Position numbers and translations under genes: made by a program. The notes under the pieces are model-generated. The model saw nothing but the letters and a program-made list of their open reading frames with translations. It had not been told where the DNA came from and did no database searches. Below are positions 26,910 through 43,689 of a DNA stretch of 61,373 bases, piece after piece. The stretch lies in UHGV virus genome UHGV-1597594. One strand, given 5' to 3'. The DNA is from a virus. Position 1 is the first letter of the stretch, and every line of letters starts with the position of its first letter.

Positions 26910-27968
26910 TTATTGCTTCAAGCCTGTGAACAGTTCATACTTGAATGCCGGCGCTGCTGCGTAATCCTCAAAGTAGAAGTCACCAATGTTGATGCTAGCA
27001 ATAGCGTCATCGACTGCTTTCTTGTAGCCTACGCGTTCAATTGTCTGCTTATCGCATTTACGCCAATATGTGCTGTGCATCATAAGTGTGGGTGATGCAG
27101 CATAGTCTACTGCAAGCTGTTGTTTTGCAGTGTCAATGTGATGTTCATAGATGTGCACATCATTGCCAGTCCAAATGAACTCTCTTGCCACACAGTTAGT
27201 CAATGTTGCAACAATATGTGTAAGCAATGCATATGATGCGATATTGATGGGCACACCAAGACACATGTCACAGCTACGTTGAGTAAGCGCACAGTCAAGC
27301 CACATGCTTGGTACTTGAGCAGAATCAAGGCATTCTGCAGAGCCATCATGCACAAGCATGCTATCATTAGCAATCTGAATTCGTTCTTCAAGAGTCATTG
27401 GCTGACAATTGAACTGAAACAGCATATGACATGGCGGCAATGCCATCTGAGACATTTGCGCAGGATTCCATGCAGACACGACTTTGTAGCGGCCAGTTGG
27501 ATTGATGACAATGTCTTTAATGCAAGTTGCAAGTTGGTCAAATCCACTGTCATTGAAGTTGCGCCACTGATACCCATAGATAGGTCCGCAATCACCATAC
27601 TCAGGCTTGCTGAATTTTGTGTTATGCAGTTCTGTGCACCAAGTTTCAAAGTCGACATCTTCACCTGGATGCAGTTTACGCCAATGACGATATGCATCCT
27701 GATGCCAGAACTTTGTAATGCCAAGCGTGTCAAGCGTTTTTACATTTGTATCACCTGACATAAACCACAGAAGTTCTCCAATGACACCCTTGACAAACAT
27801 TCTCTTAGATGTTAACAGTGGAAAGCCTTTACGCAAATCAAATCGCATTGATTCTACGAACAGTGACTTTGTGCGAGGCATGTTTTCACGAGCAGGCTCC
27901 TTAAATCTGCCATGCTCAATAACATTGTTAAGTACTCTCAAGTACTCAGTGTCGTGTTTGATATTCAT
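26910..27968 (-). CDS. thyA: thymidylate synthase (ThyA family, uracil-type active site)
   Basis: ATG at 27968. ALPPCHMLFQF (catalytic Cys motif) and QRSCDMCLGVPINIASYALLTHIVA, retaining the Asn of PxNIAS that specifies dUMP in ThyA. 352 aa, with a ~40-aa insertion relative to bacterial ThyA. Confidence 0.8.
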   Translation of the reverse strand: MNIKHDTEYLRVLNNVIEHGRFKEPARENMPRTKSLFVESMRFDLRKGFPLLTSKRMFVKGVIGELLWFMSGDTNVKTLDTLGITKFWHQDAYRHWRKLHPGEDVDFETWCTELHNTKFSKPEYGDCGPIYGYQWRNFNDSGFDQLATCIKDIVINPTGRYKVVSAWNPAQMSQMALPPCHMLFQFNCQPMTLEERIQIANDSMLVHDGSAECLDSAQVPSMWLDCALTQRSCDMCLGVPINIASYALLTHIVATLTNCVAREFIWTGNDVHIYEHHIDTAKQQLAVDYAASPTLMMHSTYWRKCDKQTIERVGYKKAVDDAIASINIGDFYFEDYAAAPAFKYELFTGLKQ

Positions 27969-28629
27969 GAATGGGATGTTTATGAGTGTCTAATGATATG
28001 TCTGAGAATTCATATGCATACTTTGATATTGCAACACCATTTGCATCTTCAAATGCTTCTGTAAAGTTGCTATCAATCCATCGTTTGACAGACTTAACTC
28101 CGCCTAAATGACATGCTGCAAGCAATGATGCTTCGGTTATTATAAATGCGCTATCATTGTATGTCGCTTTACGCCCAATTGCGTCATAGCAATCGTAGTG
28201 CTGCAGCAATTCTTGTTGACGTTCAAGCAGCATATGCTGCACCGCAATCTGTTTTGTAGAATCTTTGGCAATTTCTTGCAGTGACCAAGTCAAGCCTTTG
28301 TATCGTACCAAGTCATCATGAGCAATCTTTGTTAGCTGCCATCGACCTGTTGCGCCAAATCGATTTGTGATATGCCAACGATTGCGAGATTCAAGATAGC
28401 CCAGCTTGTCTAAGTATTCTGCAAAGCTGCAAGTTTCTGGTTCAGTGACGTCTAACAAGACGTGTACATTTGACAAATTTGCTACTGGCGCATATGTGAC
28501 ATGTTTTGTTGCAGTGCAATCACATAATGTCGGCCATGCAATGATAAAAGCAACACCAATTTTGATGAGCGATTCACATAATCTTATCATTTGTTTGAAA
28601 TTAGTGAAGAGCACTTGCAGGCAGCTCAA
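27946..28629 (-). CDS. hypothetical protein
   Basis: 227-aa ORF; no motif. Confidence 0.5.
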   Translation of the reverse strand: MSCLQVLFTNFKQMIRLCESLIKIGVAFIIAWPTLCDCTATKHVTYAPVANLSNVHVLLDVTEPETCSFAEYLDKLGYLESRNRWHITNRFGATGRWQLTKIAHDDLVRYKGLTWSLQEIAKDSTKQIAVQHMLLERQQELLQHYDCYDAIGRKATYNDSAFIITEASLLAACHLGGVKSVKRWIDSNFTEAFEDANGVAISKYAYEFSDISLDTHKHPIHEYQTRH

Positions 28630-28655
28630 TCTCCTGACAGCACACTGTCATGCAA

Positions 28656-30533
28656 TCAAAAGCCTGCAAAGAAATCTGCATCAGCAGCATCTTGCTGCGG
28701 TGTTGACTCTTGTTCAATCACAAATCGACTGTGCAACTTTTGATTATGTTTTATGTATGGCATAATGCGCCGGATTGATTCGTCAATGACAAAAGTTTCA
28801 CACCAGTCATTTGCATGTCGAATGCCTCGACCAACTGACTGCACAAAGCTTTGATAACACTTATTGCGATACCAGCTTTCGTGATTTGCAGCCTTTGTTT
28901 TGACTACGATATCACCAAGTGACTGCCAAGGTAATTTTGCAACAATTTGACATCTACAACGATTGTCTGGTAAGTCAACGCCTTCAGTAATGCTAAAGCC
29001 TACAAGTACGTAGTTAGTGCCATCAGTAAGCATTGCAAGCTTATTTTGTTTGTCTTCAGCATTGACATATGTCAGCATTCTGCGTTTGTGCTTGCTGTTA
29101 TTGATGATATAGTTTGCAATGTCTCGTGTTGATGTATGTATGATGCAATTGCAGTCATGCGTGTCAAGAATGCTGTCAATTTTCTCGACAAGTCGAGGCA
29201 TATTTGCTGCTTTGTTTTTGTAACTCAATGACAATGCAGGTCTGCATAGTACAATGGGTGATTTGCTAAAATCCCAATCAGGCTCCATATAGAATGCCAC
29301 GTAGTTTTTGATGCCATTGAGTGTAGCAAATGTGTCAATATCACCAATTGTCGCTGACATCCACAATTGCGCATGCGTAGCATCACTATGATGCACCAGT
29401 GTATTTGCAAGAAGTTCGTCATTGACACATTTGAATTGCAAGCTGTTTGTTGCAGCATCAAGTACTACAAGCATGTCACCAGGTGATTGTTCAGTTGCAT
29501 CAAGCATTGTAATGATTGAATATGACAACGTATCACAGCTGGCAACAAAGCGAATGAACGCTTTCTCAAATTGACCAAGTTGTTTACCAGAATCCTGAAG
29601 TTCACTTAGCTTTTCATATGCAGTATGCAAAAAGTCTACAAGTTCTGACAACTGCTGTGCAAGCACTCTTGCTTCTGCTCGCATTGTTGCAATGTCATAT
29701 TGTGTTGTTGCAAGCTTAATGACTGCTTTGACTTGTGCAAACACATTGTTGCGAAGTTCTACATATTTGTTCTGATTTTCAAGAGTCATGATACCTGCAA
29801 TCAGTGACTCGGCCTTTGTGCAATTCTGAATGAATCGAGGACCAATTGACGTGTCAAGAAAGCCTGACAAAATGTCATCAATTTTATGACACTCATCGAA
29901 TATCGTCAATTCACGAGGCCCAAATAAGTTTTTGACGCAATTAACTTGTATCAGCCAGTATGCATAGTTAAGCACAGTGCAATTTGCTGCAGCAGCCTTT
30001 TGACGAGTCTGCAAATATGCGCATTTAGGTCCGCATGGCAATGCAAGAGCTTTCTTTGATGACAGACCATCTTGCTGACATTTACCCATGCTGAATGGCA
30101 GCCCATTGACATGACAAATGTAATTGTCTCGACCTTTGAGCATTACACAACTTCTGAATGCTGAAGTAGTTGTGTCTGCTTTAGCATTGTTGTCGTACAA
30201 ATATTGCTGAATGAACTTGTCATACTGGTCTTGCAGCAGTTTATCAGAAGTCAGCACGTATGACTTAAAGAACGTCGCGCAAAACATCGCAACCACAGAT
30301 TTTCCCGTTCCAGTCGCTCCCTGCAATATGACATTTTGCCCATTTGCAATTGCTCGAATAATGTCGATGATTAGATGACGCTGAGTTGCATCAAAACGCG
30401 CTTGGTCCCACTTGCATGTCTTTGATTGCGCAAGATATGCTGAGAATTTATCAATATGTGCTACAATAAGCTCATCAAGTTCTTGCTGAGATTGCTCTTC
30501 TGTCTTGTGTTCTACTGACGTTAGTCTACCCAT
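28656..30533 (-). CDS. DinG/Rad3-like superfamily-2 DNA helicase
   Basis: ATG at 30533. Walker A GATGTGKS, DECH box (LTIFDECHKID), four-Cys cluster between them (C..C..C..C) as in the Fe-S domain of DinG/XPD helicases. Confidence 0.8.
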   Translation of the reverse strand: MGRLTSVEHKTEEQSQQELDELIVAHIDKFSAYLAQSKTCKWDQARFDATQRHLIIDIIRAIANGQNVILQGATGTGKSVVAMFCATFFKSYVLTSDKLLQDQYDKFIQQYLYDNNAKADTTTSAFRSCVMLKGRDNYICHVNGLPFSMGKCQQDGLSSKKALALPCGPKCAYLQTRQKAAAANCTVLNYAYWLIQVNCVKNLFGPRELTIFDECHKIDDILSGFLDTSIGPRFIQNCTKAESLIAGIMTLENQNKYVELRNNVFAQVKAVIKLATTQYDIATMRAEARVLAQQLSELVDFLHTAYEKLSELQDSGKQLGQFEKAFIRFVASCDTLSYSIITMLDATEQSPGDMLVVLDAATNSLQFKCVNDELLANTLVHHSDATHAQLWMSATIGDIDTFATLNGIKNYVAFYMEPDWDFSKSPIVLCRPALSLSYKNKAANMPRLVEKIDSILDTHDCNCIIHTSTRDIANYIINNSKHKRRMLTYVNAEDKQNKLAMLTDGTNYVLVGFSITEGVDLPDNRCRCQIVAKLPWQSLGDIVVKTKAANHESWYRNKCYQSFVQSVGRGIRHANDWCETFVIDESIRRIMPYIKHNQKLHSRFVIEQESTPQQDAADADFFAGF

Positions 30534-30553
30534 TCTAAATGAGATTTAGATTA
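30534..30553 (-). promoter_or_regulatory. palindromic leader element abutting the helicase start codon (second copy at 37459-37477)
   Basis: tctaaatgagatttaga (7-bp arms, 3-nt loop) begins 1-3 nt from the ATG; the same 20-22 nt occur before the SbcCD-like gene. Confidence 0.5.
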
Positions 30554-30648
30554 TTTGTAAAGATATAATACTACAAACAGCACACATTTGCACTTTGACA
30601 TAACTGATTGAGTATCAATCAATTATGAGTTTATAAAAGTTTTTCAAA

Positions 30649-30735
30649 AGTAGGGTGTTGTTGTTTGAGTAGAGTGTTGTTGATGCTGTCAGCTGTCTTG
30701 TTTGCATTATCGATTGCTTGCAAACTGTCAGCTGT
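30649..30735. repeat. iteron-like direct repeats in the intergenic region upstream of the helicase gene
   Basis: agtagggtgttgttg / agtagagtgttgttg in tandem (30649-30685), and ctgtcagctgtc twice (30685-30696, 30724-30735). Confidence 0.5.
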
Positions 30736-30750
30736 CATAGAACATCACAA

Positions 30751-30784
30751 AAGCAAGCAGACTGCAATTGCAATCTGCTTGCTT
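30751..30784 (-). terminator. terminator hairpin downstream of CDS 30807-31163; near-identical copy at 47033-47060
   Basis: aagcaagcagactgca-at-tgcaatctgcttgctt (16-bp arms, one mismatch); T-rich run follows on the minus transcript. Confidence 0.5.
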
Positions 30785-30806
30785 TGACACATTTGTAGCA
30801 TACAGT

Positions 30807-31163
30807 CTATTTGCGCATAAATAATGCAGCAAGCCAATTAACTGGCTTGTCAATAAGCTGCTTCCATACATTCCAATTGTACATGCCATGCGCAAACATT
30901 GTAAGAGCAAACAGCAGCATACACATTGATACAAGCCAATCAGCAAATGGCATATTGCCCCATCGAATGTACTCGAAAATGCCAACTTTAACAAGCTGAG
31001 CAAACAAAATGAGCACTACAGCCATTGCAAGTCGCATCCAGACTACATAGTGCTGAGTCTTATCTACAAACTTTGCAATCAATGCTGGCACAATGTACAT
31101 AATGTATGCAAACAGCAACAAGCAAAAGCCTGCATACAGCAGATTAGAAATAAAAGCTCCCAT
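30807..31163 (-). CDS. small membrane protein
   Basis: ATG at 31163; 118 aa with three hydrophobic segments. Confidence 0.5.
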   Translation of the reverse strand: MGAFISNLLYAGFCLLLFAYIMYIVPALIAKFVDKTQHYVVWMRLAMAVVLILFAQLVKVGIFEYIRWGNMPFADWLVSMCMLLFALTMFAHGMYNWNVWKQLIDKPVNWLAALFMRK

Positions 31164-31166
31164 ATT

Positions 31167-32048
31167 CTATCGTTTGAATTTGATGAAGTGTTCAGCATCA
31201 AGGCCCTCGAATACATACGGGTCAAGAGTTTCCCAGAAGTTTGAGTATGTCGTTGTCTTTGCAATGCTTGTTTGCTTTGACAAGTTCATATTTGGGTAGC
31301 CAAGCATTGCATAGTGTCGCTCATATATGTGCATTGACGTCGCATTATGCACATATGCGCCAAGCTTAAGACCAAGTTCATTTGCGACAAGTTCTTGCAA
31401 CAAAGTGAATGCAAACTGGTCGTTACAGAAGCCCCAAATGACATCATTGCTTCGCATGTATGTTGTCAAGTACAGCTTATCACCACGAACATTAAAGACA
31501 AGATTCAATGTGCATGGCATGTCTTTGCCAGTGTAGTTTGCATATTGTGGCTCATAAATGCTAATAACTGCTCGTCTTGTGCATTCATGATTTCGCAAAC
31601 GTTCAATGACATCTGCAATCTGCTTATGCCAAATTGCACCATACTGCGAATTGACATTGACATCATCATCACTGAACTGCTTCCAGCGAGGCAAATAACG
31701 TTCAATGCATTCAACTGCAGGATTGGCTGTCATGTACCATGCAAATTCTGCTGCAGCATTGAGCTTTTTCCATGGTCGTACATCAATCTTGATTTGTCGC
31801 TGTGAAGGGTCCTGAATAACTACAGACACATTCAGCAATTCTTTTGTTCGAGTCACTGTTTGTGCATTGTTGCCCTTTGATTCTACAAACTCACCTCTAC
31901 AATGAAGTTCATACAAAATTGAGCGAAATGCTTCTGTTGCAGTGTTTTCAATGATTGTCGTCTGTTGATAACATAAATTTGACGACAATGATTCAGCATC
32001 ATTGTACTTTATGCTGTCATTGTTATAAGGTGAATTTTTTGTGTGCAT
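31167..32048 (-). CDS. ThyA-family pyrimidine hydroxymethylase-like enzyme (candidate dCMP hydroxymethylase)
   Basis: ATG at 32048. MPCTLNLVF (catalytic Cys region) and YMRSNDVIWGFCNDQFAFTLL align gap-free with ThyA RSCDVFLGLPFNIASYALL; Asp replaces the specificity Asn. Confidence 0.7.
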   Translation of the reverse strand: MHTKNSPYNNDSIKYNDAESLSSNLCYQQTTIIENTATEAFRSILYELHCRGEFVESKGNNAQTVTRTKELLNVSVVIQDPSQRQIKIDVRPWKKLNAAAEFAWYMTANPAVECIERYLPRWKQFSDDDVNVNSQYGAIWHKQIADVIERLRNHECTRRAVISIYEPQYANYTGKDMPCTLNLVFNVRGDKLYLTTYMRSNDVIWGFCNDQFAFTLLQELVANELGLKLGAYVHNATSMHIYERHYAMLGYPNMNLSKQTSIAKTTTYSNFWETLDPYVFEGLDAEHFIKFKR

Positions 32049-32069: not shown

Positions 32070-33167
32070 TTATCGTACAACGACAGTATCTCGTTTGCAA
32101 TCTGTTCTGTCAAATATCGAGCAACAATATGATGCAGATTGCTCTTTGATTGCAAGAGCTTCGTCATTGTCAAGTGATGAAATGCCATCTATGTATGCTT
32201 TTGCATTACCAGCAATATCATCATTTGTTAACAACGCTGCACGACGTTCAGCACCAAAGAAGCCAAAGCACAATTGACGCTGCAATGCTTCACGAGAAGT
32301 CTTGTCATCAAACTCGGATTTCATGTGTTGCATAAATTCGACAATGTCATCAATGTCACATTGAGTAAAGTCAATGTACAATTTATGCATATACTTGAAT
32401 CGTTTGTAGTCTGTTGCAAGAATTTCTGGATGTGCAATGAACAGCGTCTTTTTGCTATCTATTGGATTTGCAATGACTGACGCTTGAACATAATCAACAA
32501 GCATGCCAGATTTATGAAGCTGTTCAACTGTTTTGCCAAATACATGACCAAGTGTGTCATCAAACCACTTCAAGTACATTTCGCTGTCTTCATCTTTTGA
32601 TGCGCCAACAATGTAAATCTCATTGACTCCAAGTGCTTTGAGACGAATATCAGACAACATAGTGTTCAACTGATGCTGCACATATAGCATTGGGCTACTA
32701 TGCAAAACTGTCTTGACAATCTCACAAGCAATGTCCATATATGCATAGTCAAGCTTTGCAGATTTTGATACATATGCTGCACGTTGTTGCAATGGCTCAA
32801 TTGCAGAACATGTGGTCACAAAGTTGCCCACACATTCTGCTACTGCAATGTCATGCAAGTCATCTGCAATGTACACAATACTTGACAAATCATCAAATGT
32901 CTGTACAAGCTGCTGAAGCTTCGTTTTGTAATTGCAGAGCATCAATGACTTGATGTTGCAATTGCCAAGCATTGTCTTGATGAGTCGTTGACCTGCTTCA
33001 GTGCTATCACCAGAAATGACATGTACGTCGCAGTCAAACCAGTTCAGCATGTCAATTGCATGTCGAACACCATATTGCATTTGCTTTGCAAACTTACCAG
33101 ATTCATTGAACAGCATTTCACCTGACATAATGCCGTCAAAGTCACATACGATTTGAAGTCTGTCCAT
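32070..33167 (-). CDS. HAD-superfamily phosphatase (KdsC-like N-terminal domain) with an uncharacterised C-terminal domain
   Basis: ATG at 33167. VCDFDGI (HAD motif I), ISGDS, YIADDLHD (motif IV-like) in the first ~170 aa; about 190 further aa without a recognised motif. Confidence 0.6.
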   Translation of the reverse strand: MDRLQIVCDFDGIMSGEMLFNESGKFAKQMQYGVRHAIDMLNWFDCDVHVISGDSTEAGQRLIKTMLGNCNIKSLMLCNYKTKLQQLVQTFDDLSSIVYIADDLHDIAVAECVGNFVTTCSAIEPLQQRAAYVSKSAKLDYAYMDIACEIVKTVLHSSPMLYVQHQLNTMLSDIRLKALGVNEIYIVGASKDEDSEMYLKWFDDTLGHVFGKTVEQLHKSGMLVDYVQASVIANPIDSKKTLFIAHPEILATDYKRFKYMHKLYIDFTQCDIDDIVEFMQHMKSEFDDKTSREALQRQLCFGFFGAERRAALLTNDDIAGNAKAYIDGISSLDNDEALAIKEQSASYCCSIFDRTDCKRDTVVVR

Positions 33168-33531: not shown

Positions 33532-36500
33532 TTAACAAATTGATGACGTGCCATCAGTATTTGCTACAACTGTCAATGCACTATCAAACTCATCTTGTTG
33601 CAATACATGGTCAACTATGAGTGTTTTGCGAATTGCAGAAAGTTTGGTAAGCAATTGCATCAGCACTTGCTGATAATTGATATTGTTGACATCATGCTCA
33701 GCGCCAACAATCTGCCCATTGCTAAGCTTGCCACTGATTTCATCAATGAGCAAGATGTTGCCAACTTTGTTTAAGCGTTGAGTCAAAATGAGATGCACGA
33801 TTGCAAGACCTGCGAAAGTCCCTTCCATGCCAGACATTTGACTTACGCTTCTAATTGACTTCGAACCCATCAAGTCAATCATCTTCAGCACATTGTTGTC
33901 ATTGATGTCAAAGAACACTCGGTAGTTCAATGAATCCAGCAAATCATTGAGCTGTACATTCAATGATGTTGCAATTGCTGCAAAGACATATGAAACTAAG
34001 CCTCGTTTGCTTGTGCACTGCTTATATGCATTGTACACCAAGTTTGCAATGTTCCACTTTTTAGAAGCTTGCAAATCTTTCTTGAGAGCTTCAATTCGCA
34101 CATTGTTTGCTGACAAGTCTGCTTGCATTGTTGCAATTTCTGCATTGATGCTTAGCAGTTTTGAGTTTGCTTCAGTTTCATGCTGCTTAGCATCATCAAT
34201 GTCGACTTGCAATGCAGCATTTGCTGCAATATGCTGCTGAGTTTGCTGCGCATGTTCAAGTGCAAATGCTGCAGCAGTCTTATCAATCTCAAGTTGTTTA
34301 AGCGCAGACTCATATGTCGCTTTCTTGTCATACTCTATTTGAGCAATTTCAAGTTCAGCATTTATTGCAGCCAGTTCTGATTCTACTGCAGATTTTGATT
34401 GCAATACATCTTGCTTTGCTTGTTCAGCTTTACGTTTGATGTCTGCAAGTTGATTTGTGATATCTGCAATTTGTGTTTTGACTGCTTCGACTTCAAGCAA
34501 TGTTGCTGCAGTAGCTATTGGTTGTGCAATGAATGCGTCTAAGTCTCTTTGCGCATTGACTACAGTTCTCTGCAAATCATTGAGCTTTTCTGCATGCATA
34601 TCATATGCAGCTTTATGTGCTGGATTCAGCGCAGCAATAATTGCATTTGAATCTGTGACATCAATGACTGTTGCTTGCAATTGCTCAATTTCATACTTCA
34701 AATTGCCAATTTTGACAACATTCTCATTGAATTGCTCTGTTTTTTGTGCACATTCTTGACGCAACTTAGCAAGCTCAGTTGACAGCCACAGCTTGTATGC
34801 TTGTCCTGTGCCAGATGTCAAGTCATTTGTACATACAGGGCATTTGTCGTTTTCAAGTTGCTTTTGCTTGTCTATAACATTGTCGATGTTTGTTTTTGCA
34901 GCAGATACTTCTGTTCTAAGCGCATTTTGAACAGTGTTGATGTCTTCAATTTGCTTTTGCAAAGCATCTATTTTTGCCCGAGTGTTTGCATTGTACGACT
35001 TGCCAAGATTTATCAGCACAGAATCAATGTGCTGCTTTGCTGCATCATATGCAAGCTTTGATTCATCAAGCTTTGTTCTGTACAATAACTCTGCATGCGC
35101 AACTTCTTTCTGCACTTTTGCAGATAGCTCATTCTGTTTTGTAAGCAGCTCAGCATATGTATTGTGCAGCTGTGAGCCAGATGCTATGACATTTGTGTAT
35201 GCTGCATTAGCTTCATTGTCAATATTAGTGAGTTGTTGCTCAATCTGCGCTTTTACTGTTTGCAATTTAGACATGTCTTGCAATGCAAGTGCAGCAATGT
35301 CAAGCTCAACTTTGCGAATCTTTGCAACGATGCTATCGATATTTGCTGTTGCATCTTCTACAGTTAAAATATCTGCAGAAATTTGATGCAGTCTTTTTGA
35401 GAGCTCTTCTACTTTTGCACGTGCTTTTGTAAGTTTTGCAGACCACTCTTTTTGATTATCTTGTCGTAACTGCAAAGAGTCATTGAGTTCATTGCAAGTT
35501 GTATTGAGAGACTCAAGTTCTGCTTTTATTGCGACATCAGTCAACGCAGGTTTGCTAAGACCATCAAACAATGCAGCTTTTGCAGCATCATTAGAATTGC
35601 CGAGCTGCACAAATGTATTGATGCCAAGAGTATCAAGCAACCAGTCATTCAATGAATTTGAGTCCATTGCAATGATTTGGTCAAGCAATGTCTGATTGAT
35701 GCATACATATCGCGACAATTCCCATATAGAGCCAAAGATTGCATATAGTGTGTCTTTGATTTCATGCTGCGGCACTGCATAGTCATCTGACAATCGCACA
35801 AGTTGCACAGTCTCATTAACTGTTGACACATTGTCTCGCCATGAGCCATCTGCATTTATTCGAGAACCTCGTTTGAATTTGCGCTCAAGTGTTCGAGTCA
35901 ATTTGTAATGCACATTTTGACCCGCAACTACATGCACAAACACACAAGAAGCTTCAAGCTTGTCATATGACTCATTGTCAATCAACTTGTCATTGAAGTA
36001 CGTCAAAGCATTCTGCTTTGTTGCTGCAGAAGACTGTCCAGCGTCAATGAAGCCAGTCAATAGCCATTTAATAAGCCTAAAGATTGTTGTCTTGCCATTG
36101 CCATTGTTGCCTCTAACTTGTGTAAGTTGCGCAAGATTGTCAAAGCTAACATCAACATCTTTCAATGCCATGAACTGATTTGCTTTAACATTTTGAATGA
36201 CATATTTTGCAACTTCAGTGTCAAAAGACAATTTATCAATTTGTTCATCAATCAATGACTTGAACATGTCAACAAACTGCTGAGCGTCTTCAGTAGCAAC
36301 TATAGCATTGCGTTCAATGTACGCATTGACCCAGTCAAGTGCAGCATCTTTAAGCCATTCAGCAGTTTGAACTTTTTGCAGCAAATTGTCGCCATTTGCA
36401 TCTACAGCATTGATTGAATCAATGACAGCAGAATCATACAGAATGTCAATTGCGGCAACAACGTATGAACTTACAAGATTCTGTGCAATGCGCTCAACAA

Positions 36501-37458
36501 TACCAGACAGTTCGGGCTTTGTGACCTTTGACTTGATTTTGATTTTGTTGATGCGACCAGGATTGATGAGTGCAATCTTATCTGTTTTGATGTCATTGTC
36601 AATTGTGATTGTATGATAATGCACAAGCTGCTCAAGTGGATGCCACTCTGCACCAATTCGCTTGTTGTCAATATCGATGTCAAGCAAGTTGTAGCCATGT
36701 TCTGCAGTGCCCTGTTGCATTGCAGTGTCATTCAACAAATAGTCGCCTTCACCAAAATCTCTGACAATTGGCGAGCCGCAGTATGTTAATGTCTTGGTGC
36801 CAGAAGTCCATATTGCATGTTTGTGAATATCACCCATTGCAACAAAGTTGCTGTGAAACTGTGTTGCATCTATACGACTGTCATTGTCACCACGAACAAT
36901 ACAATCATCAAAGTTGACACAATTCTTTACTGGGTCATGGAACAGCTCAATGACACACATTGATGACAATGCTGCAATCTGCGATTCATCAAGTGATGCC
37001 CAAGGCGAATATGTGCCACCAGACCACTTCTCATTTTGAGCCCACACAGCAGCAGCAAAACCAGGTGCAAGCAATTCAACTCTTGAGCTATTGATGTATT
37101 TGATTCGCTTATCATCAATTGCAGTCACAAGCTTATCAATACTGTCTGTCCACTGCATTTGTGAGCCATCACCAGCATCAAATGTGTTATCACGTTGCTT
37201 CAAATCATGATTGCCTGCAGTGATAACGATTTGAAGCTTGTCATTGACTTCAAGCATGCCTTTGAGCAACTTAACAAACAGCGACTCTTCAAGTGAATTG
37301 CTGTTCCAATGCTCAAACACATCACCAACAATAAACACTAGCTCAACTGACTTTGCTTTGTCAATCAGTTGTTTGTTGATATACTCGTATTCTACAAAAC
37401 GTCGTAAATGCCCTTGTCGAACATTATATTGAATGTCTGCTATGTGAAGTGCTTTCAT
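33532..37458 (-). CDS. fused SbcD/Mre11-like phosphoesterase and SbcC/Rad50-like ATPase (single 1308-aa polypeptide)
   Basis: ATG at 37458. N-terminal HIADIQYN, VGDVFEHW, ITAGNHD (calcineurin-like phosphoesterase motifs); then Walker A GNNGNGKTT, a long coiled-coil region and C-terminal ILLIDEISGKL (Walker B/D-loop). Confidence 0.8.
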   Translation of the reverse strand: MKALHIADIQYNVRQGHLRRFVEYEYINKQLIDKAKSVELVFIVGDVFEHWNSNSLEESLFVKLLKGMLEVNDKLQIVITAGNHDLKQRDNTFDAGDGSQMQWTDSIDKLVTAIDDKRIKYINSSRVELLAPGFAAAVWAQNEKWSGGTYSPWASLDESQIAALSSMCVIELFHDPVKNCVNFDDCIVRGDNDSRIDATQFHSNFVAMGDIHKHAIWTSGTKTLTYCGSPIVRDFGEGDYLLNDTAMQQGTAEHGYNLLDIDIDNKRIGAEWHPLEQLVHYHTITIDNDIKTDKIALINPGRINKIKIKSKVTKPELSGIVERIAQNLVSSYVVAAIDILYDSAVIDSINAVDANGDNLLQKVQTAEWLKDAALDWVNAYIERNAIVATEDAQQFVDMFKSLIDEQIDKLSFDTEVAKYVIQNVKANQFMALKDVDVSFDNLAQLTQVRGNNGNGKTTIFRLIKWLLTGFIDAGQSSAATKQNALTYFNDKLIDNESYDKLEASCVFVHVVAGQNVHYKLTRTLERKFKRGSRINADGSWRDNVSTVNETVQLVRLSDDYAVPQHEIKDTLYAIFGSIWELSRYVCINQTLLDQIIAMDSNSLNDWLLDTLGINTFVQLGNSNDAAKAALFDGLSKPALTDVAIKAELESLNTTCNELNDSLQLRQDNQKEWSAKLTKARAKVEELSKRLHQISADILTVEDATANIDSIVAKIRKVELDIAALALQDMSKLQTVKAQIEQQLTNIDNEANAAYTNVIASGSQLHNTYAELLTKQNELSAKVQKEVAHAELLYRTKLDESKLAYDAAKQHIDSVLINLGKSYNANTRAKIDALQKQIEDINTVQNALRTEVSAAKTNIDNVIDKQKQLENDKCPVCTNDLTSGTGQAYKLWLSTELAKLRQECAQKTEQFNENVVKIGNLKYEIEQLQATVIDVTDSNAIIAALNPAHKAAYDMHAEKLNDLQRTVVNAQRDLDAFIAQPIATAATLLEVEAVKTQIADITNQLADIKRKAEQAKQDVLQSKSAVESELAAINAELEIAQIEYDKKATYESALKQLEIDKTAAAFALEHAQQTQQHIAANAALQVDIDDAKQHETEANSKLLSINAEIATMQADLSANNVRIEALKKDLQASKKWNIANLVYNAYKQCTSKRGLVSYVFAAIATSLNVQLNDLLDSLNYRVFFDINDNNVLKMIDLMGSKSIRSVSQMSGMEGTFAGLAIVHLILTQRLNKVGNILLIDEISGKLSNGQIVGAEHDVNNINYQQVLMQLLTKLSAIRKTLIVDHVLQQDEFDSALTVVANTDGTSSIC

Positions 37459-37555: not shown

Positions 37556-37903
37556 TCATTTTGCAAGCATTTTGCTGATTGCATCTATCACAGTTTCACT
37601 GAGCAAGTAGTAGACAACGCTTATCAGCAATGATATCAGTACTGCAGCTGTGATAAATTGCAACGCATTCATAATTGCACGCACAAATGTTATTTGCGTG
37701 TTGTATGCAAGCACTATGCAGCATAACATAATGATGATACACCACACTACAATTGCATATGCAGGCAGCAATGAATTTGTCCATATGCAGTACAATGCAG
37801 TAGTTAGCATCAAAAATGCTATTGCTCTGATGACTGACACAATGATGTCTATGTAGGGCTTCATTGCACGTAAATGAACTCTTGGCTTATGCGGTTTCAT
37901 CAT
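37556..37903 (-). CDS. small membrane protein
   Basis: 115-aa ORF, mostly hydrophobic. Confidence 0.5.
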   Translation of the reverse strand: MMKPHKPRVHLRAMKPYIDIIVSVIRAIAFLMLTTALYCIWTNSLLPAYAIVVWCIIIMLCCIVLAYNTQITFVRAIMNALQFITAAVLISLLISVVYYLLSETVIDAISKMLAK

Positions 37904-39132
37904 GACTTTATGTACAATTCTGCAAGTTGTCTGGTGTACAGTCGTGGATTATGATATGCTTTCCAATATGCAGTAGACTTTATTGCAGCAAGAATCTCAT
38001 CATAATGTTTGACTGCTTCTGCTACAACTTCATCAAGCACGCTCAAATCTTCTACACTGACAAGCAACCATTTTTCTACAATATCAATGAACTCCTGATT
38101 GCAATTGAAGCCATACTTGTAGTTGCAAGTGTCAAGTACAAGTGGAATGCAATCATTTGTCAATGCTTCAAAAAATCTACGAAGACTGAAACAATTCTCA
38201 TCATATGATGGAATGCTTAATGTAAACTTGGCAGTCTTGATGAGTTGCAAATACTCTTCATATGGAATCAGAGGACCATTGTGCTTCCACTGATTGTTAT
38301 GTCGTCTTGTTGTGTACTTGAACAAAAACTTTGAACTGTCAAGCTCACAAAGATGGTCCATGCGTAAAATGTAGTTATAGCGGTCTCTTCTATCAGGCCA
38401 ACTGTCAGTCATTGCAAACACAAAGTCTCTTTGCTTGTCACATTTTGCTGACATGCCTCTATGCTGACACATGCAATACCAATATTGCTGTGATGGACTG
38501 AACTCGAATTTTGAGTGATGTTCGCTTCCATCTTTGCATTGTTGAACGTAAATATTGTCAGGCACAAAGTGAAAATAGAAGTGTCGAATTTGCAAGCCGT
38601 CAATGTAGTCAAGCTTATGCTGCAATGGGTCTTCACAGAAATTGTAACATTGAATGTGCTTTACTGCTGCATACTCAGCAACTATGAATGTGCACATCCA
38701 TTGCAATGCAATATCTTCACTTTTCAAAAAGTCTACAAGCGGTTCGTTTGGATGCGCTTTGCATTCATTGAACATTTTGTACCACTTGCACTGCTCCATA
38801 TCGTACTTTGAGACTGTATTGCCATTAAAGAATGACACAGTGTCAATTTTGAATGCATCAAGCTGTTTATGCACAATGTCAAGTGCTTGTGCATATGTGA
38901 TTGTCTCATCAGACATTATCTGCGCAAACTTGATTGGATATGCATGCAAATTTGCGATAGTGTCTGCTGACATTTTACGCTGTGTATGATAATCGACATA
39001 CAAAAACTGACATTTATCTGTAAGCAATTCAAGCATTGCTACAGATTTCCATCGAATTGCTTGAAAGAAATTGAAGTGCGCAGTTTGAAAAATGAGATGC
39101 GTAGGCTTGTCAGAATGAGTCAAAGTTTGCAT
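37900..39132 (-). CDS. GT-B-fold glycosyltransferase-like protein (paralog X1)
   Basis: ATG at 39132 (track start 39138 is TTG). C-terminal PSYDENCFSLRRFFEALTNDCIPLV fits the GT-B/GT4 signature PSxxExxxxxxxxEAxxxGxPxV; EDPLQHKLDYIDG and SPSQQYWY are shared with CDS 42133-43689. Confidence 0.6.
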   Translation of the reverse strand: MQTLTHSDKPTHLIFQTAHFNFFQAIRWKSVAMLELLTDKCQFLYVDYHTQRKMSADTIANLHAYPIKFAQIMSDETITYAQALDIVHKQLDAFKIDTVSFFNGNTVSKYDMEQCKWYKMFNECKAHPNEPLVDFLKSEDIALQWMCTFIVAEYAAVKHIQCYNFCEDPLQHKLDYIDGLQIRHFYFHFVPDNIYVQQCKDGSEHHSKFEFSPSQQYWYCMCQHRGMSAKCDKQRDFVFAMTDSWPDRRDRYNYILRMDHLCELDSSKFLFKYTTRRHNNQWKHNGPLIPYEEYLQLIKTAKFTLSIPSYDENCFSLRRFFEALTNDCIPLVLDTCNYKYGFNCNQEFIDIVEKWLLVSVEDLSVLDEVVAEAVKHYDEILAAIKSTAYWKAYHNPRLYTRQLAELYIKS

Positions 39133-40295
39133 GGACAAATGTCGCAGTTATGTTGATGTTTGTGTTTATTTATGAAGTCATATGTCACTGCAAAAAAGTG
39201 CTTTGCAATGTCATATCGAGTTTTCAAATATGACGCTTGGCGTTCACAAAACGCTGCATAAATGTCTGGGTGTTGTTTGAATGCAGCAATGCGTTGCTGT
39301 ACTTGTTCTGCAGAATGTACATATGACACTTTGCTCAAATATGCATCATCTGCAAATAATCGTCTGTCTTTGTCAACTGCGCAATCAACAAAAGTTGCAA
39401 TTCGTGCAACAATGGCTTCACCAACACGATTTGGCATCAACCCATATTGCTCATATTGTTGGTCACCAATAGCAATGTGTGCTGCTGCATATGACATTGC
39501 ATATGGCACACTATAAAATGGCACGCTAAAATCAAATGAGCAATTTGACTGTAGTAGTTGCGCTTGTGCATCAGACAATCTACTTGTCAAGTTGCCTGTA
39601 TGTTTGTGCTCACCAAGAAAACTTGAGCGACAACCTGAATCTACATAGTATCGAATGACTTTGTTTATGCGACTGTCAGATAGCATATGCCAATCTCTTG
39701 TAGCATATATCAAGTCTACTGTTTTTGCACCAATATGACGAGGCTCTATCGCAACATTGCTGTACGTTGGTAGCATGAACAATGGCAGCCATTTGACATT
39801 GTTGAACACTGAATGCTCATTTGACAAATTCATGCACTGGCTAAGTTCAAGTACTGGCTCATCATACACGCCATGTAGCTCAACTCTGCCTGCATGCACA
39901 AAGTTGACACGCTTAAATGGGAATCGCATGTCAGTACAAATTGTCATTCTTGCTGCAGTAGACATTCGCCACATAGCATGCAGCTTAACAACTGCTTCTG
40001 CTTGAGGTCGAGGCAACATATTTAGCAAATCAATCCAGCCACCCCACAAAATCCAAACATCATTTGAACAGATGTTGAATTGCAAACTCAATATGTCTTC
40101 TACTGTTGCAGCAATGATGTCATGCCCATTGATGCTTGCAAGGTGCTTTCGTTGATTTGCAATAAGAATGACTTGGCTGAATGGAGACTCTGGAAATGAC
40201 ACAAGCGCTTTTGCAAACAACACGGGTTCTTGCGACACCAAGTTGTTTGAGTATGGGTCGATTATGCAATCAAGCTTGTGTATGAAGAGTCTCAT
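39120..40295 (-). CDS. hypothetical protein (paralog Y1 of 43686-44855)
   Basis: 391 aa; shares AHIAIGDQQYEQYGLMPNRVGEAIV with LVVGDSLYVQAGLLPNRWVEGVL of CDS 43686-44855. Confidence 0.55.
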   Translation of the reverse strand: MRLFIHKLDCIIDPYSNNLVSQEPVLFAKALVSFPESPFSQVILIANQRKHLASINGHDIIAATVEDILSLQFNICSNDVWILWGGWIDLLNMLPRPQAEAVVKLHAMWRMSTAARMTICTDMRFPFKRVNFVHAGRVELHGVYDEPVLELSQCMNLSNEHSVFNNVKWLPLFMLPTYSNVAIEPRHIGAKTVDLIYATRDWHMLSDSRINKVIRYYVDSGCRSSFLGEHKHTGNLTSRLSDAQAQLLQSNCSFDFSVPFYSVPYAMSYAAAHIAIGDQQYEQYGLMPNRVGEAIVARIATFVDCAVDKDRRLFADDAYLSKVSYVHSAEQVQQRIAAFKQHPDIYAAFCERQASYLKTRYDIAKHFFAVTYDFINKHKHQHNCDICPCKL

Positions 40296-41026
40296 TTTGC
40301 AGATGATTCAAAAAATTTGTAGACATCGCAGTTAGCAATGTGGTCATTCCAAGCATCTTCAGAGTCTGCAACAAAGCCACAATGACAGCGTTTTGGTTGC
40401 CAAACTGGTTCAACTACTGCAGGCATTGCTTCTTCAATAGTGTTTGCAGGTTCATTATCTGCTGGCAATACTTCAACGTCTTCAACTTGTGCTGCATCTT
40501 GTTGTGTACGCTGCTCAATGACATTGCCCTCAAAGTCAAACTGAATGCCAGCTTGTTCTGCTTTTGTACGATTGTTACGAGCTACGAACAAATACGCAAA
40601 GATGAATTCGACAAGCGCTATAGCAAGTGACTTCAATGCATTGACAAGAAGCATGATGCCAGTTGATAAGTGACCATCAAAGCTCAAAAATACGAACACA
40701 CATGTAAAGCATGACATAAACACTGCAATCAGTGGAATGTTCTTGTATTTTGGCAACAAATCAGAGTTGACTGACGTAAGCAACACAACGAATTGATAGC
40801 CTATCGCAAGCCAATGGTCGCCAAACACTGCATAGATATGCGTAGTGATGCCAATAAGAAATGTGATAGTCACAATCATAATGAGCAACACACTTGTCAG
40901 AAAGTCTGCAATAGAATTGCTGAGCTTGTCATACCAGTGTTTGTTGACAATTGATGTGTTGGCTACGCGCACTTTACTAAGTGCATCTATGCCGCTTTTG
41001 ATATTTGATTGTGCTTTCATACACAT
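40292..41026 (-). CDS. polytopic membrane protein
   Basis: 244 aa with at least four hydrophobic segments and a Cys/His-containing C-terminal tail. Confidence 0.55.
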   Translation of the reverse strand: MCMKAQSNIKSGIDALSKVRVANTSIVNKHWYDKLSNSIADFLTSVLLIMIVTITFLIGITTHIYAVFGDHWLAIGYQFVVLLTSVNSDLLPKYKNIPLIAVFMSCFTCVFVFLSFDGHLSTGIMLLVNALKSLAIALVEFIFAYLFVARNNRTKAEQAGIQFDFEGNVIEQRTQQDAAQVEDVEVLPADNEPANTIEEAMPAVVEPVWQPKRCHCGFVADSEDAWNDHIANCDVYKFFESSAK

Positions 41027-41514: not shown

Positions 41515-42087
41515 TCATGCACCAAGTTCAGCTAAGCATTTCAACACATTGTCTTGCAGACTTACATTATTGTCGATTTCGACAATATGCAATGGTGAGT
41601 TCTTTCGCCACTCATCATATGCAGCAATCATTTCATTGCGTTTGCTGACATCAATGTTGACATTACCACAAAAGTTATCGACAAAATCTGGTGCGACATC
41701 ACGCTTGCATAAGAACACTACATGCGGCAATGTTGCAAGCTTCTTTTCATATGCTTCAAAGAATGCTTGATGCTTATCAGTGTGCAACTCTTTGTAAAGC
41801 GTTGTGTTGAAGATTTGATGTGTGATGAACGAACGGTCACACAAAAATGTTGCTTTGTCAAAGCCTTGAGAGTCATTTCCAATGAACTCTAAGAAGAAGC
41901 GCCAATCATAAAAGAACGCTTCATTGAGGTCCCAAGGTTCGGGCATTGGGTCATCACCTGACTCATGCTGTTGCCACCAAGAACGAGATGTTCGTTTGCA
42001 ATTGATAAACCATGGGCGCCACTTCATCAATTCATTGATGAGTGTTGTTTTGCCTGAAGCTTCTACACCTTCAAATATTGCTATCAT
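41515..42087 (-). CDS. thymidylate-kinase-like P-loop dNMP kinase
   Basis: ATG at 42087. N-terminus MIAIFEGVEASGKTT matches the Tmk P-loop (IxxEGxxGxGKTT). Confidence 0.7.
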   Translation of the reverse strand: MIAIFEGVEASGKTTLINELMKWRPWFINCKRTSRSWWQQHESGDDPMPEPWDLNEAFFYDWRFFLEFIGNDSQGFDKATFLCDRSFITHQIFNTTLYKELHTDKHQAFFEAYEKKLATLPHVVFLCKRDVAPDFVDNFCGNVNIDVSKRNEMIAAYDEWRKNSPLHIVEIDNNVSLQDNVLKCLAELGA

Positions 42088-42132: not shown

Positions 42133-43689
42133 TCATTGCACTTCTACGAATGGCTCTTTCAACACAAAGCTGTCACCATTGCAACATGCGGCTGAGCAAT
42201 CGTCTGCATCAAGTGCACATGACATATCAGACTTACAGAACTTGCAATATGAACATGACCATGCATGACTCATAAAGTCGTTTGCTTCACAAATTACACA
42301 GCGCTCATGTGAAAGTGTATTGTCGCAATTGTCACAAGACTTTTTGATTGGCACATCTTTATTGATATATGCAAGATGCAATGCAATATCATACACAAAG
42401 TCGCCCGTATATTGCTGAATGAAATCAGTGTGCCACAGTTCTTTCAATAATTGCGCATGTCTGTATGGCTGAACAATGTCTTCAAGATGCTGCAAGTCAT
42501 CATCGCTAACCATGAGCTTCTTAATGACAAACTGTTTGAACTGTGGCCATCTGTCAAACATATAGAGTTTGCATGAGTTGTGCACAAGTGGAACACAGCC
42601 AAGCACAATGCTTTCACAGAATCTACGCAAACTAAAACAGTTTGCATCATATGACGGCACAATCAATGTGAATCTGCTATGCTTGATGAGTTCAAGGTAT
42701 GTGTCATATGGCAGTAGCTTATCTGACAATTGCTGTTGTTGTTTGTCTCTGCTGAAAAATCTGAACACAATGCCTTTGTCAATTGCATCTTGATTGTGTA
42801 GATGCATGAGTTTGCTGATGAGTTCTGTGCGTTCAGTTTTGTCTCGCCAAGTATTCGTCAATGCAAATGCAAAATTTAGTCGCTTGTCATCAAATGTCGC
42901 TTCAATGTCATTCCAAGTTTTGCCATGCAAATACCAGTATTGCTGTGATGGACACCATCCATAGTATGCGACAGCATCTTGTTCTGCTGTAACGTCGTAC
43001 ACATATGCAGAATTGTATTCAAGACCAAGCTTTTTGACATTGTTGCAGTCATGAAAATACCAATGCTGCACTTTGAATATCTTTGATGCACTGAATGCGC
43101 TTTCATATGGCCCTGAATAGCGATAGTCAATGTAATTGAGCTTGTGCTGCAATGGGTCTTCGACAAAGTTGTTTATGACTGTGCCTTGTTGTTTGTCCTT
43201 AGTCTTGCGAGCATTCAATGCAACATTGTATTGCATGATGACTGACAGCATCTCATACACTACATACATGAGTGCTTTGTAGACTGAGCCTGCTGCGTCA
43301 ATTAGTGGCAAATCACGTTTGACTGATGTAGCACCAAATGTCTTGCAATATGCAGAAAATGTGTCAAGTTCTGCTTGCTGAAATGAATTGCATGCACCAT
43401 TGAATATGTTGAATGTTGCAATGTAGCTCATATTGCAAGACGTCATTGACATATCAAGACGCTTCATAATGTCGACAATGCGACATTGAGCAAAATCTGA
43501 CACATCAACATATTTGACATGATGGCATGATGTAGTCAAGCCATCTGCGACATCTTTCATCTGTGGCACAAAGCCTATAACAATGAACAAGTCATCTTTG
43601 TTTGCTCGTTCAAACATTGCTGCACTTTTCCAAGTCAATGAATTGAAAAAGTCTATGTAGCCAGTTTGAGTGATGATATGTGTTCTCAT
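42133..43689 (-). CDS. GT-B-fold glycosyltransferase-like protein (paralog X2) with Cys-rich C-terminal extension
   Basis: ATG at 43689. PSYDANCFSLRRFCESIVLGCVPLV signature; about 80 extra C-terminal residues with 14 Cys. Confidence 0.6.
   Translation of the reverse strand: MRTHIITQTGYIDFFNSLTWKSAAMFERANKDDLFIVIGFVPQMKDVADGLTTSCHHVKYVDVSDFAQCRIVDIMKRLDMSMTSCNMSYIATFNIFNGACNSFQQAELDTFSAYCKTFGATSVKRDLPLIDAAGSVYKALMYVVYEMLSVIMQYNVALNARKTKDKQQGTVINNFVEDPLQHKLNYIDYRYSGPYESAFSASKIFKVQHWYFHDCNNVKKLGLEYNSAYVYDVTAEQDAVAYYGWCPSQQYWYLHGKTWNDIEATFDDKRLNFAFALTNTWRDKTERTELISKLMHLHNQDAIDKGIVFRFFSRDKQQQQLSDKLLPYDTYLELIKHSRFTLIVPSYDANCFSLRRFCESIVLGCVPLVHNSCKLYMFDRWPQFKQFVIKKLMVSDDDLQHLEDIVQPYRHAQLLKELWHTDFIQQYTGDFVYDIALHLAYINKDVPIKKSCDNCDNTLSHERCVICEANDFMSHAWSCSYCKFCKSDMSCALDADDCSAACCNGDSFVLKEPFVEVQ

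Follow-up and report, generated by a model that had tools for sequence, protein, structure and literature searches.

A divergent thymidylate synthase homolog and T4 beta-glucosyltransferase-like genes in a human-gut phage point to glycosylated 5-hydroxymethylcytosine in its DNA

Our study reports on a divergent thymidylate synthase (TS) homolog, TS2, and on the genes that accompany it in an uncultured human-gut phage (UHGV virus genome UHGV-1597594); the whole stretch of 61,373 nucleotides that was analysed is referred to here as the window. TS2 (31167-32048 on the minus (-) strand; 293 aa) is a homolog of the dCMP hydroxymethylase type, predicted to turn dCMP, methylene-tetrahydrofolate and water into 5-hydroxymethyl-dCMP. 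On the strength of its active-site residues, and of genes resembling the DNA beta-glucosyltransferase (BGT) of phage T4, we propose that the DNA of this phage probably carries glycosylated 5-hydroxymethylcytosine (5hmC), made by a pre-replicative route of the T4 type and replacing cytosine. A preliminary description of the window had favoured a cytosine-specific hydroxymethylase in a T4-like 5-hydroxymethyl-dCMP pathway, and this reading survives all computational tests applied here, including those on L143D, Ser-x-Tyr, D169 and Ser167/Arg126 (E. coli numbering); its suggestion that the DNA may contain a modified pyrimidine is likewise supported by the TS2 residues and the T4-BGT-like genes. 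The accessory genes that it named are real, but it missed four glycosyltransferase (GT)-like genes and a HAD-family partner, and on account of these the prediction goes beyond 5hmC to its glycosylated form.

The window encodes two members of the TS superfamily, each an intact reading frame at the position described earlier. TS1 (26910-27968, (-); 352 aa) is a canonical thymidylate synthase, converting dUMP to dTMP: it matches PF00303 (Thymidylat_synt) with E 1.1e-76, above the gathering score, passes the cut-off of the NCBIfam thymidylate-synthase equivalog TIGR03284 (239 vs 108 bits) and has bacterial ThyA proteins as its best matches in the PDB (E 1e-54). It contains the motifs PPCH, QRSCD and ...PINIASY, and in E. 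coli numbering reads L143, C146, H147, Q165-R-S-C-D169 and N177, so that the uracil-specifying Asn attributed to it earlier is indeed in place. An insertion of ~31 aa directly follows the PPCH catalytic loop (about residues 190-222) of this otherwise canonical protein, and Tyr replaces E. coli Arg127; homologs of similar length occur in the relatives L012 and L098 (62% and 51% identity). TS2 matches PF00303 partially (E 1.3e-24, above the gathering score) and lies below every NCBIfam TS equivalog cut-off (best 79 vs 175 bits). TS1 and TS2 align with each other over 47 residues only (E 0.003); judged from their sequences they diverged anciently within the superfamily and did not arise by recent duplication, and the label of paralogs once given to them is apt at the superfamily level but not in the sense of close paralogs.

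The residue on which the assignment of TS2 to cytosine turns had been read as Asp at the equivalent of E. coli Asn177, and four independent checks agree on it. An ungapped HMMER alignment to Lactobacillus casei TS ('RSNDVIWGFCND' in TS2, 'RSADIFLGVPFN' in the reference) places Asp on Asn229, which is E. coli Asn177; Asp likewise occupies this column in MAFFT alignments with characterised enzymes, in the BLASTP alignment to T4-like gp42 and in an alignment with MilA, the mildiomycin CMP 5-hydroxymethylase. Alignment of TS2 with T4-like gp42, dUMP hydroxymethylases and ThyA thus gives Asp, not Asn. All 120 retrieved homologs have this residue, Asp210 in TS2, and it does not vary among 51 aligned family members. 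Asn is found at the position in TS1, E. coli ThyA and the dUMP hydroxymethylases Goe9 gp29 (SPO1-like), a ViI-like enzyme and MP1412, while Asp is shared by TS2, MilA, the T4-like dCMP hydroxymethylase (dCH) of phage CkP1 and homologs encoded by phages of Bacteroides, Chryseobacterium and Agathobaculum. In MetaGPA (PMC8670742) no other positions discriminate as well as 177 and 147 between the TS homologs of cytosine-modified and unmodified phage contigs; they are Asp and Thr in TS2, and Asn and His in TS1.

The rest of the active site bears on the chemistry that TS2 would perform. Its signature, with E. coli numbers in brackets, comprises E101 (E58), S134-x-Y136 (Y94), R158/R159 (R126/127), D176 (L143), C179 (C146) and T180 (H147), followed by M198-R-S-N-D202 (D169), W205, D210 (N177), H240 and Y242. 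All of these positions are identical in T4-like gp42, the shared pattern across 143-177 being D..CT, MRSND, G and ND, and the diagnostic residues are invariant or nearly so in the 51 family members and 120 homologs, with C179, D202 and D210 invariant. In T4 dCH an acidic residue (Asp/Glu) three positions before the catalytic Cys (Cys-3), together with a Ser/Thr-x-Tyr pair (T4 D145, S94 and Y96), activates water such that a hydroxymethyl and not a methyl group results, and the D145N enzyme is inactive (PMC6400193); the hydroxymethylation rule has also been stated as L143D/E (PMC13326640). TS2 has both elements, in 'GKD176MPC179' and 'NS134QY136G'. The equivalent of D169, D202, is retained within 'MRSND', where the verified 5-hydroxy-dCMP (5hodCMP) synthase RB69 gp48 has 'MRSQN' in the same alignment; D169N marks the flavin- and O2-dependent 5-hydroxy-dCMP synthases, and every D169N homolog tested made 5-hydroxycytosine (5hoC) (PMC13326640). 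Ala176 and Lys133 give MilA its preference for CMP, and Ser/Arg at these positions restores a preference for dCMP (PMC5175136). The corresponding Ser200 and Arg158 of TS2 (S167/R126) are of the deoxyribose type, unlike those of MilA; a CMP hydroxymethylase of the MilA/BcmA type, which needs Ala at S167 and Lys at R126, was discarded as an assignment. Finally, W122 and W205 align with W82 and F174, the aromatic residues of T4 dCH that contact the p-aminobenzoic acid (PABA) part of the folate.

An AlphaFold2 (AF2) model of TS2 has a mean predicted local distance difference test (pLDDT) score of 90.6 and matches TS-fold structures at probability 1.00, in the order MilA (E 8e-20, template modelling (TM) score 0.70), canonical TS, AfhB of HY126 (E 2e-15) and T4 dCH (E 8e-15). 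MilA is also the best match by sequence (E 1e-21; PDB 5jnh, 5b6d), and identity amounts to 30% with T4-like dCH (E 4e-21) and 26% with RB69 gp48 (E 2e-16). In a neighbor-joining (NJ) tree TS2 falls within a separate clade of uncharacterised metagenomic and Bacteroidota-phage proteins that includes MA9V2_146 and BF486P2_32. We do not file TS2 as a gp42 ortholog, because the tree sets its clade apart; from the sequence comparisons, most likely this is an independently evolved clade of hydroxymethylases, and the signature residues support the view that TS2 would act like a dCMP hydroxymethylase although separate from the gp42 orthologs.

Two duplicated pairs of GT-like genes, recognised by local BLAST, flank a kinase gene. 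They form a two-gene cassette (BGT-like plus GT47-like) that is tandemly duplicated between 37900 and 44855, with the kinase, a 71-aa open reading frame (ORF) and a 244-aa membrane/zinc-ribbon-like protein (40292-41026) between the copies. GTb (39120-40295, (-)) resembles T4 BGT and is predicted to transfer the first sugar onto 5hmC in DNA; GTb2 (43686-44855, (-)) is its paralog (24% identity over 331 aa, E 1e-13). GTb matches the PHROG beta-glucosyltransferase family phrog_7922 (E 3e-8). A PDB search with the single GTb sequence found nothing, and only the family profile gave a match, the sole one being T4 BGT itself (1bgt/1nzd, E 1.5e-5 over 240 residues). In this alignment D122, Y281, R290 and E293 of GTb pair with D100, Y261, R269 and E272 of T4 BGT; the catalytic Asp100, whose role in T4-BGT-like enzymes has been described (bioRxiv 10.1101/2023.12.21.572611), and the UDP-binding Y261, R269 and E272 are kept in both GTb and GTb2, and GTb2 keeps the motifs T-D-L-R-F and P-N-R-W-V-E.

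The second gene of each cassette, GTa (37900-39132, (-)) and its paralog GTc (42133-43689, (-); 30% identity over 444 aa, E 3e-47), encodes a putative glycosyltransferase of the GT47/exostosin type. GTa matches the Pfam families Exostosin_GT47 (E 1.6e-4) and Glyco_trans_1_2 (E 2.5e-4), both under the gathering score, and a comparison of the GTa/GTc family with the BGT-like profile in hhalign gave no significant match. GTa homologs hold the same position in L012 (71% identity) and L096 (41%) and also match GT47, and a weak homolog of GTc lies directly downstream of a D177-type TS gene in Agathobaculum phage AB434P2. We read GTa and GTc as probable glycan-extending enzymes because adjacent phage GTs divide the work in this way, one of a pair priming 5hmC and its partner extending the glycan (bioRxiv 10.1101/2023.12.21.572611). 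A 462-aa protein encoded at 45557-46945 was not counted among the GTs, as it has no Pfam, PHROG, NCBIfam or PDB match and aligns to the BGT-like profile in hhalign with E 0.12.

Directly upstream of TS2 lies the gene for a KdsC-family HAD fusion protein (32070-33167, (-)), in which a HAD domain (residues 6-140) is joined to a C-terminal domain of ~220 aa. Its matches are weak (NCBIfam TIGR01670, E 1e-8, 35 bits against a cut-off of 107; PDB 2p9j/3ij5, E ~1e-3), and the Asp motifs of the family are conserved as D9, D11, D54, D102/D103 and D106 (DxDG, SGD, DDxxD). The gene adjoins TS2 in L012, L096 and L098, with 36-59% identity between the HAD proteins, and the HAD domain is 32% identical to a protein encoded near the TS2-like gene of Chryseobacterium phage MA9V-2. 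A word-indexed search returned 2 homologs and an exhaustive one 38, mostly of the HAD domain alone; a Pfam scan of these relatives found HAD families only and no informative fusion partner for the C-terminal ~220 aa. It is plausible that the protein, a suspected sugar-phosphate phosphatase, helps to supply the sugar donor, because HAD phosphatases make sugar donors in published clusters (AfhF, RB69-type phages; PMC13326640), a HAD-APH fusion serves to place heptose on 5hmC, and a T4-BGT-like enzyme can add 3-deoxy-D-manno-octulosonic acid (Kdo) to 5hmC (bioRxiv 10.1101/2023.12.21.572611). The window showed no nucleotidyltransferase and no isomerase. Building on this neighbour, we advance only tentatively the more specific proposal that what 5hmC bears is an oligosaccharide or a sugar of an unusual kind, perhaps Kdo or another ulosonic acid, which the two GT pairs would build and the KdsC-type HAD protein would feed.

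The nucleotide-metabolism genes that such a route would call on are also present. The dCMP deaminase (44827-45552, (-); PF00383, E 3e-21; phrog_174, E 3e-45) would feed TS1 with dUMP made from dCMP, and adjoining genes encode a MazG-family nucleotide pyrophosphohydrolase (6542-6916, (-); PF03819, E 9.5e-9, 35.9 vs 22 bits), a candidate dCTPase and analog of T4 gp56 which in the PDB comes closest to the small MazG-like proteins 2q73/2q5z (E 5e-3), and a dUTPase (6918-7409, (-); PF00692, E 2e-11, 44 vs 22 bits) that would convert dUTP to dUMP. These three genes, which the preliminary description had named, stand, the last two with scores above the Pfam cut-offs. The dUTPase scores with PF22769 (DCD) as well (31 vs 27 bits) and carries the motif 'IDSDYHGE', which we take to be of the dUTPase type; a reading as a bifunctional dCTP deaminase-dUTPase was dropped on that account. 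The Tmk-like P-loop nucleotide kinase (41515-42087, (-)), predicted by analogy to phosphorylate 5-hydroxymethyl-dCMP to 5-hydroxymethyl-dCDP, is real in that it is 36% identical (E 4e-27) to the 'thymidylate kinase' adjoining the TS2-like gene of MA9V-2, but its matches to Tmk models are weak (phrog_761 thymidylate kinase, E 1.7e-5); it has no match in the PDB and shows only P-loop similarity to RB69p045.

Taken together, these genes suggest a model for the synthesis of the modified base. The MazG-type enzyme would hydrolyse dCTP to dCMP, and the dUTPase dUTP to dUMP. In TS2, Cys179 would attack C6 of dCMP, Asp210 would select and protonate the cytosine, and the one-carbon unit would come from methylene-tetrahydrofolate; Asp176, Ser134 and Tyr136 would then activate a water molecule that traps the exocyclic methylene, giving 5-hydroxymethyl-dCMP and not 5-methyl-dCMP. 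We infer this mechanism because the residues are identical to those of T4 gp42. The Tmk-like kinase and the NDP kinase of the host may raise the product to the triphosphate, which the family-B DNA polymerase of the phage would incorporate, while the dCMP deaminase and TS1, assigned to their families by strong profile matches, would supply dTMP in parallel. After replication the two T4-BGT-like enzymes would add a sugar to the hydroxyl of 5hmC, the GT47-like pair would probably extend the glycan, and the HAD fusion beside TS2 would probably help to supply the sugar donor. In metagenome mining, T4-BGT-like GT-B enzymes associate preferentially with thymidylate-synthase pathways (bioRxiv 10.1101/2023.12.21.572611), which speaks for this model. 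The expected benefit is resistance to the restriction and CRISPR nucleases of the host.

Several observations weigh against this model. The case rests wholly on sequence signatures carried over from T4 gp42, MilA and RB69 gp48, and T4-like dCH branches away from the TS2 clade, so that TS2 is not a gp42 ortholog. The D169N rule is established for the hydroxylases, and an enzyme that keeps D169 may still be something other than a hydroxymethylase. The dCTP substrate of the MazG protein and the 5-hydroxymethyl-dCMP substrate of the kinase are presumed from T4 gp56 and gp1. Among the GTs, R191 of T4 BGT is not conserved in the GTb family, the AF2 model of GTb, built from 7 sequences, is poor (pLDDT 58), the PF03016 (GT47) scores of GTa, GTc and the L096 homolog (21.6, 26.6 (E 4.5e-6) and 28.0 bits) stay under the cut-off of 33.4, and a GTa/GTc family profile found nothing in the PDB. 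In Sphingomonas phage PAU, relatives of GTb adjoin a D169N-type TS, and the GTs alone therefore do not separate 5hmC from 5hoC. No nuclease degrading cytosine-containing DNA was identified in the window, so complete replacement of cytosine is not assured.

The product of TS2 could be a different base. We consider it quite unlikely that TS2 is a flavin- and O2-dependent 5-hydroxy-dCMP synthase of the RB69 gp48/HY126 AfhB type, with the GTs decorating 5hoC by ether linkage, as they do in RB69, DLP3 and RL38J1, an alternative that was published in 2026 and did not figure in the preliminary description. The set of several GTs, a Tmk-like kinase, a HAD phosphatase and a TS homolog does resemble the published 5hoC clusters, the TS2 model also matches AfhB (E 2e-15), and the loosely related PAU has its D169N-type TS among GTb-like genes; but TS2 and all 120 homologs keep Asp169 where each verified 5hodCMP synthase has Asn, the string MRSND...GFxND is that of T4-like gp42 and not the MRSQN...VMQLD of RB69, the protein is closer to T4-like dCH than to RB69 gp48 by the E values given above, and the aromatic residues that contact PABA in T4 dCH are kept as W122 and W205. 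That TS2 methylates dCMP (as an Xp12-type enzyme or a TS N177D-like one), leaving 5-methylcytosine in the DNA, would agree with the retained folate-binding Asp169 and with the statement, cited in PMC8670742, that N177D alone makes TS a dCMP methylase. Cys-3 of TS2 is Asp, however, and not the water-excluding hydrophobic Leu with which methyl products correlate, the water-binding Ser-x-Tyr pair is present, and BGT-like enzymes require a hydroxyl acceptor; in this comparison, made without an Xp12-type reference sequence, we judge methylation very improbable. Slimmer still is the prospect of a dUMP hydroxymethylase of the SPO1 gp29 type, with 5-hydroxymethyluracil or a derivative in the DNA, the pathway on which the preliminary description had hedged. 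TS2 shares the L143D feature with such enzymes and scores against phage families annotated as dUMP hydroxymethylase, as some of its close homologs are (e.g. AB434P2_00007). But in all three dUMP hydroxymethylases (Goe9 gp29, MP1412 and the ViI-like enzyme) N177 is retained together with N147/N165, and TS2 instead shows D177, T147 and M165 like T4 dCH and MilA; AB434P2_00007 itself has D177, which makes its annotation doubtful; and a canonical TS1 and dCMP deaminase making dTMP are at odds with replacement of thymine.

A different objection leaves TS2 as the source of 5hmC nucleotides and supposes that the GTs act on glycans of the host envelope or on virion proteins, the DNA carrying bare 5hmC or a non-sugar derivative. 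It draws on the weakness of the GT47-like assignment in enzymes that normally build polysaccharides, on the two membrane proteins inside the block and on the normal service of the KdsC family in lipopolysaccharide synthesis. We nevertheless think it unlikely, given that the one relative of GTb and GTb2 with a solved structure acts specifically on DNA and has catalytic residues that they keep, that the GT genes sit inside the replication and nucleotide module between dCMP deaminase, kinase and SbcCD, and that a GT47-like gene also follows a D177-type TS in the unrelated phage AB434P2.

A comparison of the proposed system with T4 highlights both the shared scheme and the different parts. The set of activities is the same as in T4 (gp42 dCMP hydroxymethylase, gp1 dNMP kinase, gp56 dCTPase/dUTPase, cd, td and the alpha- and beta-glucosyltransferases), the hydroxymethylases agree throughout their active-site signature (D143, C146, T147, MRSND, G173, ND177, S-x-Y), both phages retain a canonical TS and a dCMP deaminase as well, and the BGT-like enzymes keep D100, Y261, R269 and E272. 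Yet TS2 is 30% identical to gp42 and of another clade, in the place of gp1 there is a Tmk-like kinase and in that of gp56 a small MazG protein as the dCTPase candidate, and the four GT-like genes form two duplicated pairs whose second type is GT47-like and not of the T4 alpha-glucosyltransferase type; the KdsC-like HAD fusion is an obligate neighbour of TS2 here, and the relatives of the phage are Bacteroidota jumbo phages and not Straboviridae. MilA has D177, D143 and D169 in common with TS2, but it combines Ala176/Lys133 with a preference for CMP and works in antibiotic biosynthesis, whereas TS2 belongs to phage DNA metabolism and carries Ser200/Arg158, a pair of residues that shifts the preference of MilA to dCMP. 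The 5hoC clusters of RB69, DLP3, HY126 and RL38J1 (PMC13326640) likewise have a cytosine-specific TS homolog, a Tmk-like kinase, several GT-B enzymes and a HAD phosphatase; they differ in D169N and the use of flavin and O2, TS2 keeping D169, and in an arabinose-5-phosphate isomerase and a nucleotidyltransferase-kinase that were not detected in the window. Metagenomic clusters for hypermodification of 5hmC (bioRxiv 10.1101/2023.12.21.572611) share T4-BGT-like GTs with helpers, HAD-like ones included, and adjacent prime/extend GT pairs. In those clusters 5hmC arises after replication through a methyltransferase and TET, whereas here it would arise before replication through TS2, and that report mentions neither GT47-like partners (0 text matches to GT47/exostosin) nor a KdsC-type HAD protein. 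Both cytosine modification based on a D177-type TS (PMC8670742) and T4-BGT-like GT-B enzymes (bioRxiv 10.1101/2023.12.21.572611) are established as common features of uncultured phages, and glycosylated 5hmC is a known anti-restriction strategy, most likely found here in a new phage lineage.

The TS2 module is syntenic in relatives of the phage (L012, L096 and L098; TS2 identity 73%, 53% and 51%), and the Chryseobacterium phages MA9V-1 and MA9V-2 carry a trio of TS2-like, kinase and HAD genes. The TS2-like protein of MA9V-2, gp146 (L007:7701-9044; 447 aa), has the D143/D169/D177 signature; ~194 residues after its HxY motif are without a counterpart in TS2, and its gene adjoins those of the kinase and a helicase, with the KdsC-like protein encoded a few genes off. 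The paper on MA9V-1 lists two TS genes and reports no test of DNA modification. More widely, the TS2 family occurs on at least 592 IMG/VR viral contigs. None of 80 sampled IMG/VR loci of the family (~40% identity) shares the GT, HAD or kinase genes of the window; because these sampled loci lack such genes, the GT-rich module appears, within this sample, specific to the present lineage.

Three of the phages compared have TS homologs of their own interest. In PAU (NC_019521.1), gp182 (L099:11177-11884) is a short 'thymidylate synthase' with Glu at Cys-3, 'MRSNN' (D169N) and D177, and its neighbourhood (L099:7613-16258) contains the T4-BGT-like paralogs gp179 and gp180 and RmlA/B/C-like genes (dTDP-rhamnose). 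We predict that PAU DNA may carry glycosylated, possibly rhamnosylated, 5-hydroxycytosine, because gp182 bears the published signature of 5-hydroxy-dCMP synthases; PAU is not mentioned in the 2026 Nucleic Acids Research (NAR) paper. AB434P2_00007 (L008:3838-4500), from an Agathobaculum phage, is annotated 'deoxyuridylate hydroxymethyltransferase' and has D177, T147 and D143; by these residues it is more likely to be cytosine-specific and its annotation is probably wrong. The gene that follows it (L008:4497-5582) is weakly GT47-like. The 53-kb Bacteroides phage BF486P2 has two D177-type copies (L006:9165-9926 and L006:11998-12678) and no canonical TS in the region; copy _32 shares the motif 'GFCNDQ' with TS2, and copy _27, which in the alignment has Leu at the Glu58 and Gly173 positions, may be inactive or do something different.

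The lineage of the phage is best traced through a fused SbcCD protein (33532-37458), a single polypeptide of 1308 aa with an SbcD-like metallophosphatase and an SbcC-like ATPase part (phrog_35725, E 1e-113). Its full-length matches among GenBank phages are only Chryseobacterium and Tenacibaculum jumbo phages, and PAU matches it only over the C-terminal ~180 residues; the fusion is a useful marker of this phage lineage. A near-identity DNA search of GenBank phages with the window gave zero matches, and hence no annotated twin, while the fused SbcCD and the module genes identify distant cultured relatives in the Chryseobacterium phages MA9V-1/2, the Tenacibaculum phages PTm1/5 and PAU. The host of this uncultured gut phage is probably a member of the Bacteroidota. 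The general layout agrees with what had been described, namely genes on a single strand (70 of the 73 long ORFs of the window lie on the minus strand) and no Shine-Dalgarno signal (such motifs precede 3 of 68 genes, against a background of 4.5%).

Further features of the window lie outside the modification genes. The family-B DNA polymerase, recognised by strong profile matches, appears to be split into two ORFs, an exonuclease part of 501 aa (7798-9303) and a polymerase part of 430 aa (3145-4437), separated by ~3.4 kb in which the dUTPase, the MazG gene and two other genes are found. The early/replication region also encodes, at 55367-55981, a cysteine protease domain of the papain family (PF00112, E 6e-10) and, at 49677-49994, a thioredoxin (phrog_22, PF00085). 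Directly downstream of TS2 there is a small, strongly hydrophobic predicted membrane protein (30807-31163, (-)) with no family matches and an uncertain place in the pathway. L012 has a 67% identical homolog in the same position, and L098 has there a 120-aa gene with no detected homology to it. The neighbour of gene 42 in the T4-like phage CkP1 also encodes a membrane protein, Imm (superinfection immunity), a likeness that may be coincidence.

Nothing specific was found in the literature on crAss or Bacteroides phages with a dCMP hydroxymethylase or 5hmC, and the searchable literature holds no report of DNA modification in this Bacteroidota-related lineage. The TS2 clade is large and without a characterised member, so that a biochemical assignment for one member would carry over to many sequences, including some now labelled 'thymidylate synthase' or 'dUMP hydroxymethylase'; the cultured phages MA9V-1 and MA9V-2, with their TS2-like, kinase and HAD genes, allow a direct test of the prediction, for which MA9V-2 gp146 is a good proxy. 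The four GT-like genes and their KdsC-like partner may lead to DNA glycans, and to DNA glycosyltransferases for use as tools, that are new. Should the glycan prove to be an oligosaccharide or to contain Kdo, both the glycan type and the enzyme combination would be new for pre-replicative, thymidylate-synthase-based cytosine modification, and the phage would offer the first worked-out case in the lineage of the MA9V and PTm1 jumbo phages. If the prediction is true, T4-style replacement of cytosine and glycosylation of DNA occur in a lineage of large human-gut phages related to Bacteroidota phages. Such DNA would resist many restriction enzymes, may alter innate immune sensing, can be under-represented or mis-called in sequencing libraries and would bear on the engineering and use of these phages.

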